From positions 1 to 64,000 of the forward strand of contig CAVPSB010000002.1 of the NCBI GenBank assembly GCA_963708025.1: a DNA stretch of 64,000 bases, written 5' to 3'. Position numbers and translations under genes: made by a program. Positions 3,793 to 52,613 of this stretch are shown here, piece by piece. Origin of the DNA: an uncultured Candidatus Rokubacteria bacterium (GTDB lineage: Bacteria; Methylomirabilota; Methylomirabilia; Rokubacteriales; DASRDR01). Under the pieces are notes generated by a model, which ran no database searches, was not told where the DNA came from, and was given only the letters and a program-made list of their open reading frames with translations. Each line of letters begins with the position of its first letter. Position 1 is the stretch's first letter.

Positions 3793-4211
<419 letters not shown>

Positions 4212-4974: not shown

Positions 4975-5050
4975 TGGTGGGCCCACCTGGACTCGAACCA
5001 GGAACCAACCGGTTATGAGCCGGTGGCTCTGCCAGTTGAGCTATGGGCCC
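4975..5050 (-). tRNA. tRNA with CAT anticodon, most likely tRNA-Ile2 (lysidine)
   Basis: GGGCCCATAGCTCAACTGGCAGAGCCACCGGCTCATAACCGG...GTTCGAGTCCAGGTGGGCCCACCA; lies downstream of rpoD like E. coli ileX. Confidence 0.92.
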
Positions 5051-17957: not shown

Positions 17958-18032
17958 TGGCTGGGGCGGGAGGATTCGAACCTCCGAATACGGGATCCAA
18001 AGTCCCGCGCCTTACCGCTTGGCCACGCCCCA
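17958..18032 (-). tRNA. tRNA-Gln(TTG)
   Basis: TGGGGCGTGGCCAAGCGGTAAGGCGCGGGACTTTGGATCCCGTATTCGGAGGTTCGAATCCTCCCGCCCCAGCCA. Confidence 0.97.
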
Positions 18033-50617: not shown

Positions 50618-51247
50618 ATGGGTCGCCCCGCTCGCGCCGCCGATCTGAAGGTCAAGCAGGAGGTCCTGATTCCCGCCCGGACCGGGGCCGGCTTCCGGAT
50701 GGAGGCTGGCGAGTTCGTCCAGGTGCTCGACGTCTCCGGCCAGCAGTGCGCGGACTTCTTCGCGTTCCGGGCCGACGACCCCCGCGAGTACCTGTCCGCC
50801 TCGCACACTCGGGTCCAGGTTGACCGGCTGTTCCCGCAGGTCAACCAATCGTTCTTCTCGAGTCTTCGCCGCCCGATGTTCCAGCTCGAGGAGGACCACT
50901 CGCCGGGCGTCCACGACATGCTGTTCGCCGCCTGCGATGCGGCCCGGTATGTCCAATACGGCGTGGGCGACCACGCCTCGTGCGCCGACAACCTGCGGGC
51001 GGCGGCGGGCAGGCTGGGCTTCGAGCCGACCCACGTTCCCCAGCCCGTGAACTTCTTCATGAACGTCGCGGTCCGCCTGGACGGGCGCTGCGAATTCGGA
51101 TCGCCGCCGACCAGCCCGGGTGACTACGTCCTGCTCAAGGCCTTCGAGGACTGCCTGGTCGTGATCTCGGCCTGCCCGCAGGAGTGGAATCCCGCCGCCA
51201 ACTACCACCCGTCGGATCTGCTGGCGCGGGTCCTGGTGGCCGCCTGA
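50618..51247 (+). CDS. DUF1989 / urea carboxylase-associated family protein
   Basis: GQQCADF, HDMLFAACD, HASCADNL, PVNFFMNV, SACPQ. Confidence 0.88.
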   Translation: MGRPARAADLKVKQEVLIPARTGAGFRMEAGEFVQVLDVSGQQCADFFAFRADDPREYLSASHTRVQVDRLFPQVNQSFFSSLRRPMFQLEEDHSPGVHDMLFAACDAARYVQYGVGDHASCADNLRAAAGRLGFEPTHVPQPVNFFMNVAVRLDGRCEFGSPPTSPGDYVLLKAFEDCLVVISACPQEWNPAANYHPSDLLARVLVAA

Positions 51248-51251
51248 AACC

Positions 51252-51620
51252 ATGACGTTCATCCGCGAGGTCGGCGACGACGAGCTCCGGCGCGAGAAGG
51301 CGAAGGCGCGCGAGCTGCGCCAGAGCCCGTGGTGGAAGCGACGGCTGGCCGCCGGGCGGTGCGCCTACTGCGACCGGCCGACCCCTTCGCGCGAGCTGAC
51401 GATGGACCACCGCGTCCCCCTCGTGCGGGGCGGCCGCTCGACGAAGGGCAACGTGGTGCCGGCCTGCAAGGCGTGCAACACGGCCAAGAAGTACCTCTTG
51501 CCGATCGAGTGGGAGGCGTACATCGCGCGGCTTGCCGACCCGGCGGAGTCGGAGGAGCACCCGCCGTCATTGCCCGTGCGAAAAGAATTGGACAAGCGAG
51601 CGGAGCCGGATTTAGGATGA
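51252..51620 (+). CDS. Small HNH endonuclease
   Basis: CAYC...LTMDHRVPLVRGG...NVVPACKACN. Confidence 0.9.
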   Translation: MTFIREVGDDELRREKAKARELRQSPWWKRRLAAGRCAYCDRPTPSRELTMDHRVPLVRGGRSTKGNVVPACKACNTAKKYLLPIEWEAYIARLADPAESEEHPPSLPVRKELDKRAEPDLG

Positions 51621-51748
51621 GACAAATCGATCGGGGGTCACACAGCCCCCTGGCGCGCCGATCCTGGCAGTGGAGCCGGGCGGGGCGGATCGAGCCGCGG
51701 GCCGGGAGTCGGCGGCCGGCCGGCGGTGGCGGGATCGTGGGCCCGCGT

Positions 51749-51975
51749 GGTGCGTGCGCCGAGAAAGGAGGTGGTCCAGCCGTGTGTACAACCCCGGTGA
51801 TTTTCTGTGAGGTGGTGACCTCCTAGGTCGCGCGCACCCGGTTCCATCTGAGGGTGGCCCGCCTGGGAGGATCCCCAGGCACCACCGGCCCCGAGGGTCC
51901 TGCACTTCACCTGCAGGGCGGCCCGAGCCTCCGACAGCGAGGTGGGTCGCAGACGCCCTCGGGGCTCCCTTTTTG
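51749..51975 (+). ncRNA. Candidate structured RNA containing a 14-codon micro-ORF (51782-51826)
   Basis: Three GC-rich stem domains ending in TTTTT; extended 16S-complementary SD AGAAAGGAGGTGGTCCAGCCG. Confidence 0.55.
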
Positions 51976-52057
51976 CGGAGATCCCGGTCCCGGATCCTGG
52001 GAACTCACGCCCGCCGGCTTCTGGCAATCCTCTGACTCTGGCCGCCCTGGCGTTCCA

Positions 52058-52131
52058 CTTCGAGCCGCGGCTTCGCCGCGGCCTGCGCGGGGGGGCCTCG
52101 GGGTCTTCCCAGACCCCCCCGAAGATCCTAG
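52058..52131 (-). repeat. Dispersed repeat family 2, copy 1
   Basis: Reverse complement CTAG...TTCGGGGGGGTCTGGGAAGACCCCGAGGCCCCCC...CGCGGCGAAGCCGCGGCTCGAAG; matches 63744-63820. Confidence 0.7.
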
Positions 52132-52613
52132 TTGAGCATTCCGACCAGGCGGTGGAGCTCGGCGCGGGCGGGGCGGTAGTCGGGTTCGATGTCGAGAGCC
52201 TGCCGCAGCTCGGCGATCGCCTCGTGGACCTTGCCCTGCTTGGCGTAGACGCGGGCCAGGTTCACGTGTGGGTAGTGGCGCGGCTCGTAGCGGGAGGCGG
52301 CCATCGCCTTCTGGAGCCAGGGGATGGCGTCCTGGTGGCGGCCGAGCTTGATGAGATAGGAGCCGATGTCGTTGTAGGGGTTGCCGAAGTCCGGATCGAT
52401 ACGGATCGCGGTGCAGCACTCGCGGATCGCCGCCTCGAGATCGCCGTTGAAGCTGTAGGTCCAGCCGAGGAAGGTGTGGGCCTCGGCGGTCGGCAGGCAC
52501 TCGATGGACTTCCGGTAACCGGCGATCGCGCTCTCGAGGTCCCCTCTCATCTGGGCCTCGTACGCCGCCTCGAAGTACCGCTGGGCCTGGTCGCGCGCGC
52601 TCGCCTCGTCCAT
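52128..52613 (-). CDS. TPR-repeat protein
   Basis: AEAHTFLGW, DPDFGNPYNDIGSYL. Confidence 0.88.
   Translation of the reverse strand: MDEASARDQAQRYFEAAYEAQMRGDLESAIAGYRKSIECLPTAEAHTFLGWTYSFNGDLEAAIRECCTAIRIDPDFGNPYNDIGSYLIKLGRHQDAIPWLQKAMAASRYEPRHYPHVNLARVYAKQGKVHEAIAELRQALDIEPDYRPARAELHRLVGMLN

Follow-up and report, generated by a model that had tools for sequence, protein, structure and literature searches.

The stretch of DNA analysed here (the window, 64,000 nt from the start of contig CAVPSB010000002.1 of an uncultured Candidatus Rokubacteria bacterium) contains, at positions 51625 to 51975 of the forward strand, a genuine RNA gene, present as a single copy and furnished with a promoter and a terminator that are conserved. 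The gene probably gives rise to a separately transcribed small mRNA or small RNA (sRNA) of about 350 nt that is a counterpart of the Ms_IGR-5 RNA (Rfam RF02471) and works like the rre-type small mRNAs. By analogy with rreB, a member of that group, it is most likely a weakly translated micro-mRNA that binds the 30S ribosomal subunit. Its core consists of a Shine-Dalgarno (SD) sequence extended into a long complement of the 16S rRNA 3′-end, a 14-codon open reading frame (ORF) whose own 3′-end masks that SD, and a second SD-like motif within the ORF. What is new here is an enlarged variant of a known, functionally unexplained kind of RNA. An earlier sequence-only reading had described a structured RNA cassette with a micro-ORF behind a strong, sequestered SD. 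All of the sequence features that it listed proved to be in their places, and it had recognised the SD and its masking; it had overlooked the 21-nt complement of 16S rRNA, the imitation of the 16S tail by the masking strand and the internal second SD.

An independent transcription unit

A conserved block of about 365 nt (51613–51978), delimited by BLAST homology, fills the gap between an upstream HNH gene and a downstream TPR gene. The block is matched in 38 of the 41 genomes of the order, including 27 of the 27 that are at least 90% complete, a tally that takes in one genome flagged as unpublished (G038). Each matched genome has a single strong, near-full-length match, accompanied in eight genomes by short, weak secondary matches. 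The homology block and metatranscriptome contigs together suggest a transcript of about 350 nt with putative ends at 51625 and 51975 (+ strand).

The promoter that had been proposed as a possibility, TGGACA-N18-TAGGAT (51589–51618, +), is the sole sigma-70-like site between 51000 and 52700 in a consensus scan, with a mean of 0.0 sites in shuffled sequences (n = 50). Its −35-like box lies at 51589–51594, with TTGGACA, GTAGACA or TTTGG at equal spacing in relatives, and its −10 box at 51613–51618, where it overlaps the end of the HNH ORF. A −10 box (TAGGAT or TACGAT), the −35-like box and an A/T-rich stretch are kept at a conserved distance in 43 of 44 related loci. It was also observed that the HNH stop codon itself overlaps the −10 box. 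At the other end, a U-run (51971–51975, +) follows the terminator stem; relatives have T-rich tails, and RNA contigs end at 51942–51969. A simple terminator scan called none at the locus because the terminator stem closes a three-way junction, and this result was not counted against termination.

Sixteen RNA sequencing runs hold part of the stretch, and the contigs of four of these runs, from three studies, were compared with it. The contigs cover 51656–51969; eight of the ten covering contig pieces match without differences, and the other two show 11 (record 2) and 2 (record 9) differing letters. No RNA contig of the four runs lies on the flanks, 51200–51650 or 51979–52347, and one contig opens at 51656 immediately behind sequencing-adapter sequence. 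In having a small transcript of its own, framed by a separate promoter and terminator, the locus agrees with the rre-type genes; contigs are confined to 51656–51969, and the ends are putative.

The evidence supports a stand-alone gene for a structured RNA rather than a leader, because the gene has its own conserved promoter, its own terminator and a convergent neighbour. A cis-regulatory leader or riboswitch would have a co-oriented gene directly downstream; here the terminator is followed by the TPR gene (Pfam) at 52128–52613 on the − strand, the convergent arrangement that had been described before.

Complementarity to the 16S rRNA 3′-end

The extended SD, GAGAAAGGAGGTGGTCCAGCC, occupies 51761–51781 (+) and is a complement of the 16S 3′-end. 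The genome's own 16S rRNA ends in ...CGGCTGGATCACCTCCTTTCT, its tail reading ...GGAUCACCUCCUUUCU. Positions 51762–51782 (AGAAAGGAGGTGGTCCAGCC plus the G of the start codon) form 21 contiguous pairs with the 16S 3′-end, one of them a G·U pair, and relatives that have an A at the wobble position form 17 to 18 perfect pairs. The complement spans the entire single-stranded 16S tail and continues into helix 45. When one mismatch is allowed, the 17-mer AAGGAGGTGRTCCAGCC occurs only here and in two 16S genes in the 8.17-Mb assembly. Like the rre-type mRNAs, the RNA therefore carries a complement of at least 16 nt to its own 16S 3′-end that includes the canonical SD and ends in the first base of GTG (...CCAGCC-G, 51782), the start of a 14-codon small ORF (sORF). 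In family f2 of the class the start is an ATG one base further on, so that the complement does not end in a GTG there.

The strand that masks the SD is itself an imitation of the 16S tail. This anti-SD strand, GGTGGTGACCTCCT (51811–51824, +), pairs with 51766–51781, and its masking portion, GGUGGUGACCUCCU, is at the same time the 3′-end of the 14-codon ORF. In the computed ensemble, the unpaired probability is at least 0.9 for the toehold GAGAA (51761–51765), which is predicted to be single-stranded, and about 0 for the rest of the extended SD. The view that a very strong SD is sequestered by the 3′-end of its own ORF thus agrees with the ensemble, which leaves only GAGAA exposed, and in silico the RNA shows the rre-type arrangement in which only the 5′-most bases of the complement are single-stranded and the remainder lies in a hairpin. 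Opening of the SD region is calculated to cost 9.8 kcal/mol, and a duplex with the 14–16-nt 16S tail to yield −25 to −30 kcal/mol; displacement of the mask by the 30S subunit, seeded on the toehold, would therefore be energetically plausible. As a separate observation, the spacer directly 3′ of the 16S gene (L031 1490–1500, G000:C16) reads CTAAGGAGATCGGGGGG, which is SD-like and, in the precursor, might pair back with the anti-SD.

The micro-ORF and its internal second SD

The micro-ORF, MCTTPVIFCEVVTS* (51782–51826, +), has a GTG start, 14 codons and a TAG stop. Within it lies a second SD-like motif, GAGGTGG (51809–51815, +), with exactly 9 nt between GAGGTG and the stop codon. The conservation of this arrangement was examined in 132 loci, which comprise relatives, covariance-model matches and 80 loci from a two-motif scan of one genome for each species; one locus among the 132 (L065) comes from an unpublished genome (G111). 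An in-frame ATG, GTG or TTG located 7–16 nt after GGAGG and a stop located exactly 9 nt after GAGGUG are found in 129 of the 132. Three loci, L079 (Verrucomicrobia), L083 (Flavobacteriales) and L098, were rejected as chance pattern matches that lack the ORF architecture. Without these three and L065, and with duplicates collapsed, 91 distinct sequences remain.

The ORF frame is open in all 91 distinct sequences, compared with 13 and 15 for the other two frames and with an expectation of 0.14 when the spacer is shuffled. The frame is kept although spacer lengths lie anywhere between 22 and 31 nt and the start codon shifts its position; the stop codon is TAG in 75 sequences, TGA in nine and TAA in seven. 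The same ORF geometry and 9-nt spacing recur in 9 of 9 further loci of a compact form of the RNA (described below) that were found without requiring the second motif, and homologues of the 14-codon ORF span at least seven phylum-level labels. The micro-ORF noted in the sequence-only reading is accordingly real in an evolutionary sense, with a conserved frame and a stop fixed 9 nt after GAGGUG. At the peptide level conservation is seen in the C-terminal half, [TI]-C-E-V-[AV]-x-x. Of 56 distinct sequences of the compact form, 50 have a Thr codon (ACN) before Cys, with all four third bases in use. On our reading, selection would act on translation through a fixed window, and much more weakly, if at all, on the sequence of the peptide. 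The motif GAGGUG(G/A)U is complementary to the anti-SD, and from its distance of 9 nt to the stop we infer that it would pair with the anti-SD at the moment when the last sense codon occupies the ribosomal P site.

Secondary structure and covariation

An RNAalifold consensus derived from 28 sequences contains 84 pairs in 13 helices, and 98.0% of the alignment cells are paired. Eighteen pairs have changed on both sides, compared with 12.0 ± 1.3 in shuffled alignments, none of 500 of which reaches 18, and the covariation score is 0.186, versus at most 0.051 when pairing partners are slid by 1–3 columns. The structure is supported by covariation, and the compensatory changes are located in the 5′ domain, the two middle hairpins and the terminator domain.

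In the 5′ domain (51627–51693, +) a TCGATC/GATCGA stem closes a hairpin with a conserved ACACA loop (51633–51650) and a second hairpin; its helices 1–4 carry compensatory changes, for example exchanges of AU and GC pairs in 9 of the 28 sequences and of UA and CG pairs in 11. Two hairpins follow between 51695 and 51746 (+). The first (51695–51726) and the second (51729–51746) precede the SD region, and the covariation count gives three pairs changed on both sides for helix 5 and one-sided changes only for helix 6.

The SD region forms a long-range domain in which the outer stem joins GGTGCGTGCG (51749–51758, +) to CGCGCGCACC (51829–51838, +) and AGGAGGT (51766–51772) pairs with ACCTCCT (51818–51824). 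Both pairings, which had been proposed before, are present in the minimum free energy (MFE) fold and in most homologues folded singly: the outer stem has at least 5 bp in 45 of 53 distinct homologues and the SD/anti-SD helix at least 8 bp in 47 of 53. The sequences of the outer stem are clade-specific, and the stem is out of register in the sequence alignment. Helix 8 (51766–51781 with 51811–51824) comprises 13 pairs, with 99.5% of cells paired and no two-sided change.

Downstream, a predicted hairpin at 51853–51886 (+) consists of a GGTGG/CCACC stem closing GCCTGGG/CCAGGC and a loop with a further SD-like sequence, GGGAGGA. This hairpin, also proposed earlier, recurs in the predicted fold; it is nearly invariant and hence beyond the reach of covariation. 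The RNA ends in a three-way terminator domain (51887–51966, +) whose 11-bp outer stem (51887–51897 with 51956–51966) encloses hairpins at 51899–51917, with the loop TCACC, and at 51918–51950. Helices 11–13 of this domain have compensatory changes, for example among GC, CG and AU pairs in 13 of the 28 sequences, which bears out the multibranch stem with two inner hairpins and a terminal TTTTT (51971–51975) that had been described from the sequence.

Two further complementarities were observed. The invariant ACACA of the 5′ hairpin loop (51640–51644) could pair with the UGUG that precedes the internal SD (51806–51810), as could the invariant CGGUGA in the ORF (51797–51802) with the conserved loop TCACC in the hairpin of the terminator domain (51906–51910). 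Both partners are invariant in each case, and the two might represent tertiary or alternative pairings.

Relationship to Ms_IGR-5

At gathering thresholds Rfam gives no match in the region, and ARAGORN detects no tmRNA or tRNA at the locus; readings as tmRNA, 6S RNA, signal recognition particle RNA or RNase P RNA were dropped on these grounds. The relationship of the RNA emerges from its distribution in the class. A covariance model, R1, built on the core (51747–51924), matches 88 of 151 genomes of the class (family f1, 7/8; f2, 66/73; f4, 1/1; f8, 13/15) and none in f6 (0/20), f11 (0/21), f13, f10, f7, f9 or f12. RF02471 passes its cut-off in 37 of the 151 genomes, and these belong to exactly f6 (18/20), f11 (18/21) and f13 (1/1), with canonical scores of 55–84 bits; in f1, f2 and f8 it scores only 25–35 bits, at the same coordinates as the R1 matches. 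Both tallies take in genomes flagged as unpublished. Each family of the class carries one form or the other, canonical Ms_IGR-5 or the R1 form; in f7, f9, f10 and f12, of which only 2, 1, 6 and 2 genomes were searched, too few to speak for absence, none was found by R1, RF02471 or the two-motif pattern. The strict two-motif pattern had suggested absence from f6, f7, f9, f10, f11 and f12; for f6 and f11 this was misleading, as both carry a variant ending in GAGGTGA. In one f2 genome (G214) the motif pair occurs twice, at C9:872364–872410 (−) and 874954–875000 (+), 2.5 kb apart in opposite orientation; the other genomes listed beside it have the pair once each.

On sequence grounds, the locus appears to be an enlarged, diverged counterpart of Ms_IGR-5 in the Rokubacteria lineage. 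This link is considered solid despite the sub-threshold score, because the R1 and RF02471 distributions are complementary and the weak RF02471 scores fall at R1 coordinates. The ordered core of Ms_IGR-5 is also present (the extended SD, the micro-ORF with C-E-V, GAGGUG 9 nt before the stop and the GGCCCCGAG terminator), together with the orthologous distribution. The two forms have in common ACACA, AAGGAGGUGRUCC, a micro-ORF ending in ...[TI]-C-E-V-[AV]-x-x-stop, GAGGUG 9 nt before the stop, a CACC-CGGCCCC-GAG...CUCGGGG terminator and one copy per genome. They differ in that the present locus has an extra 5′ domain and in that its SD is masked by CCUCCU, a sequence absent from the actinobacterial and the compact forms. 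The statement of the sequence-only reading that no named RNA family applies holds for the Rfam thresholds, yet the RNA is a probable diverged counterpart of Ms_IGR-5 with rre-type architecture.

Elsewhere in the class a compact form of about 200 nt is found (G107:C397:3380–3573, locus L215; and L213, L198 and L199 in G048, G117 and G148), and these loci pass the Ms_IGR-5 threshold with 55–84 bits. Beyond the class, R1 scores 104 bits in Binatia, 90 in Thermodesulfobacteriota, 67–70 in 'Deltaproteobacteria', 64 in Desulfuromonadales, 24 in Streptomyces, 24 in Terriglobia and 18 in Nitrospiria, and RF02471 passes its threshold on four of four actinobacterial loci and on none of 12 others. One locus labelled as an uncultured Gammaproteobacteria metagenome-assembled genome (L146) has a mycobacterial-type Ms_IGR-5 core and sORF and may be a mis-binned actinobacterial contig.

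Rfam describes Ms_IGR-5 as an 'Actinobacteria sRNA' and lists no function. In the accessible parts of the literature it is mentioned only as an expressed Rfam match, with no reference to an sORF or a function, and what these sources contain on Ms_IGR-5, CC2171 (RF01867) and the Rv0812/Rv0813c interval consists of expression listings.

Proposed mode of action

Among the roles suggested in the sequence-only reading, ribosome binding is the best reading of the RNA. In the free RNA only GAGAA would be exposed, the rest of the extended SD being held by the internal imitation of the 16S tail. The 3′-terminal 16S bases of a free 30S subunit would seed on this toehold and displace the internal mimic, after which the RNA would hold the subunit very firmly and the GUG start would lie at the margin of the duplex. 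The micro-ORF would then be translated, probably inefficiently, and GAGGUGG, at its fixed distance from the stop, would re-engage the anti-SD during termination, so that engagement by ribosomes would decide the fold and the lifetime of the RNA. In this scheme 30S binding, weak translation and ribosome-dependent decay are adopted by analogy from experiments on rreB. The earlier notion of a switchable sRNA or small-peptide gene stands as far as a stand-alone, ribosome-oriented small-ORF RNA is concerned and falls as regards its type I toxin-like part.

Several observations weigh against this interpretation. The MFE of the single sequence is weakly unusual (z = −1.99), 4 of 100 shuffled sequences folding equally well, and the SD/anti-SD helix is invariant, so that covariation neither supports nor refutes it. 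The matches at the locus to RF02471 (20.6 bits, E 0.028, gathering score 45) and RF01867 (17.3 bits, gathering score 75) align end to end, fall below the gathering scores and are not significant genome-wide. The N-terminal half of the peptide varies freely, the conserved C-E-V residues are encoded by the invariant RNA motif UGUGAGGUGG, which the pattern of the two-motif scan enforces, making the C-E-V invariance of its 80 loci partly circular, and Cys is replaced by Gly in family f11; for these reasons the peptide itself may have no function. The RNA evidence consists of assembled contigs, which give no strand, ends or abundance; they begin at 51656/51657 as compared with a putative start near 51625, and carry-over of DNA is formally possible, the absence of contigs from the flanks being the sole counter-argument. 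Pairing past the single-stranded 16S tail would require that helix 45 be melted. In this organism 30S binding, translation and the peptide are carried over by analogy, and the likeness to rreB and rreR is one of architecture.

A broader proposal is tentative and, on present evidence, doubtful: that a single ancient, nearly pan-bacterial class of micro-mRNAs that capture ribosomes comprises Ms_IGR-5, the form of the Rokubacteria lineage and the rre genes of alpha-proteobacteria. Its members would sense or buffer free or idle 30S subunits through two sites that hold the anti-SD of one and the same ribosome, and would make the peptide as a by-product. At initiation the anti-SD would be held by the complement of the entire 16S tail, which strand displacement from the toehold would open, and at termination by the SD 9 nt before the stop, in an initiation-like geometry on the last sense codon. 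If true, this would imply a sensor or buffer role in ribosome homeostasis, hibernation or quality control.

Apart from this proposal, the locus yields a single model for three RNAs that have been catalogued separately, and it extends the Ms_IGR-5 family far past Actinomycetota, to Methylomirabilota and to records labelled Binatia, Desulfuromonadales, Thermodesulfobacteriota, Nitrospiria and Terriglobia. In all members a 12–15-codon ORF is preceded by a super-SD and contains a second SD at a distance of 9 nt from the stop, an architecture that is that of the 30S-binding rreB. The family includes cultured, tractable carriers such as Streptomyces and Mycolicibacterium smegmatis.

Alternative explanations

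A purely non-coding RNA, regulatory or ribosome-associated, in which the ORF is a by-product of RNA-level constraints (the SD, the second SD and the 16S mimic) and is never productively translated, is rather unlikely. It would account for the invariance of UGUGAGGUGG and CGGUGA even at synonymous positions, for the unconserved N-terminal half and the Cys-to-Gly change in f11, and it would sit well with the weak translation described for rreB in the accessible text (PMC5711450). It does not readily account for a frame that stays open in 91 of 91 sequences despite a spacer of 22–31 nt, as against 13 and 15 for the other frames, for starts that move in frame among ATG, GTG and TTG, for a stop that varies among TAG, TGA and TAA at a fixed position, or for the four third bases used in the Thr codon of the compact form (50 of 56 distinct sequences). 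That synonymous variation, with the conserved C-terminal half of the peptide and an ORF architecture conserved across phyla, is what might be expected of an ordinary gene for a functional 14-residue peptide whose RNA structure only controls its synthesis. Such a gene is improbable here: the 45-nt ORF is embedded in about 300 further nt whose structure is conserved and covaries, the residues that are conserved fall on an RNA motif able to pair with the anti-SD, and Cys is not invariant. The RreB and RreR peptides, according to the accessible text (PMC5711450), are unstructured and have no over-expression phenotype.

The masking of an SD by a long-range 5′/3′ fold resembles type I toxin mRNAs, and the presence of an HNH gene upstream in 48 loci of the Methylomirabilota lineage might suggest a 3′ untranslated region or attenuator of that neighbouring gene. 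Type I toxin mRNAs encode hydrophobic peptides of roughly 20–60 residues, have a cognate antisense RNA and are often multi-copy or mobile. The peptides encoded here, of 12–15 residues, have neither the length nor the low polarity that a membrane toxin would need, their N-terminal half is poorly conserved, and the gene is single-copy and vertically conserved in the whole class; the toxin-like part of the sequence-only reading is not supported. An origin as an untranslated region conflicts with the gene's own conserved promoter, the further gene that separates HNH from the RNA in f2, the lack of an HNH gene beside homologues in other phyla and the convergent downstream gene. Explanations of this kind are highly improbable, and a ribosome-binding, weakly translated micro-mRNA is preferred to all of these alternatives.

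Genomic neighbourhood

The upstream gene (51252–51620, +) encodes a 122-residue protein with a stand-alone HNH endonuclease domain (PF01844, Pfam). The HNH gene is kept upstream of the RNA across the order, adjacent to it in f1 and one gene removed in f2. In tblastn searches with the HNH protein, all 48 loci with HNH upstream of the RNA belong to the Methylomirabilota lineage; HNH adjoins no homologue in other phyla, and a 49th match, in an actinomycetotal locus (L078), is weak and unrelated (E 2.5e-4, about 2 kb away on the opposite strand). HNH as a functional partner of the RNA was rejected, the synteny being limited to the order. The neighbours of the RNA gene vary between phyla; in mycobacteria they are an aminotransferase IV gene on one side and a nitrobindin-like gene on the other. 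BLASTP clusters of neighbouring ORFs merged and were uninformative because spurious ORFs in high-GC DNA overlap on both strands, and targeted tblastn was used instead.

Between the RNA and the TPR gene, at 52019–52140 (+ coordinates), lies a GC-rich hairpin (GGGGGGGCCTCGGGGTCTTCCCAGACCCCCCC...) with a weak, chance-level Rfam match, which is probably the terminator of the TPR gene. The sole Rfam or ARAGORN matches in the window are a class A RNase P RNA at 3798–4202 (−; 277.7 bits, Rfam), a tRNA-Met (CAT) at 4975–5050 (−) and a tRNA-Gln (TTG) at 17958–18032 (−).

Comparison with known systems

In leader-peptide attenuators of the erm/cat type, which sequester an SD, and in dual-function sRNAs such as SgrS/SgrT and RNAIII/hld, a short ORF is translated and ribosome occupancy remodels RNA pairing. 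The RNA described here resembles these systems in that it both codes and folds. It differs from them in that there is no downstream gene to regulate, the terminator being followed by a convergent gene, and in that no target-pairing seed was identified in it.

The consensus of CC2171, a Caulobacter sRNA, opens with GAAAGGAGGUGAUCCAG followed by UG, which amounts to an extended SD running into a GUG start codon, and in this it fits the rre genes reported for Caulobacterales in the accessible text of PMC5711450. Its sORF is different and longer and lacks UGUGAGGUGG. Judged from the consensus, CC2171 looks like a Caulobacter rre gene. No publication was found that links the Ms_IGR-5, CC2171 and rre families, reports the Ms_IGR-5 sORF or extends the Ms_IGR-5 and rre families to the phyla considered here, in a search that covered openly available main texts. 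The papers found to cite the rreB study (PMC5711450) deal with other topics. The rre genes have so far been described only in alpha-proteobacteria, without a function, just as Ms_IGR-5 is listed without one.

The closest described system is rreB of the Bradyrhizobiaceae (Hahn et al. 2016, PMC5711450; the following is taken from its accessible text). This is a 165-nt mRNA with an sORF for 14 amino acids. Seventeen nucleotides, the last of them the G that opens the GTG start, are complementary to the 16S 3′-end, and only the five upstream bases of this stretch are predicted to be single-stranded. The mRNA co-sediments with 30S subunits and is weakly translated, and its half-life rises from 10 to 37 min once the start codon is removed. 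Analogues occur in four alpha-proteobacterial orders, including rreR in Rhodobacterales, with no function found, and according to the authors the peptides RreB and RreR are not similar to each other.

The present RNA departs from this model in several respects. It lies outside the alpha-proteobacteria, and at about 350 nt, as opposed to 165 nt, it contains some 200 nt of extra structure; it has a structured 5′ domain of 120 nt and a terminator built as a three-way junction. Its mask strand is both a mimic of the 16S tail and the 3′-end of its own ORF, and its second SD, fixed 9 nt before the stop, may be a further difference. Binding to the 30S subunit has been shown for rreB, whereas here it is proposed by analogy. 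Even so, all of the sequence-level features of the rre type are present: a small transcript that stands alone between a promoter and a terminator of its own, a 16S complement (16–17 nt in rre, 21 nt here) that ends in the first base of GTG, an sORF of 14–18 codons in rre and 14 here, about five upstream bases of the complement that are predicted to be single-stranded while the rest lies in a hairpin, and a genomic context that is conserved within the clade only.

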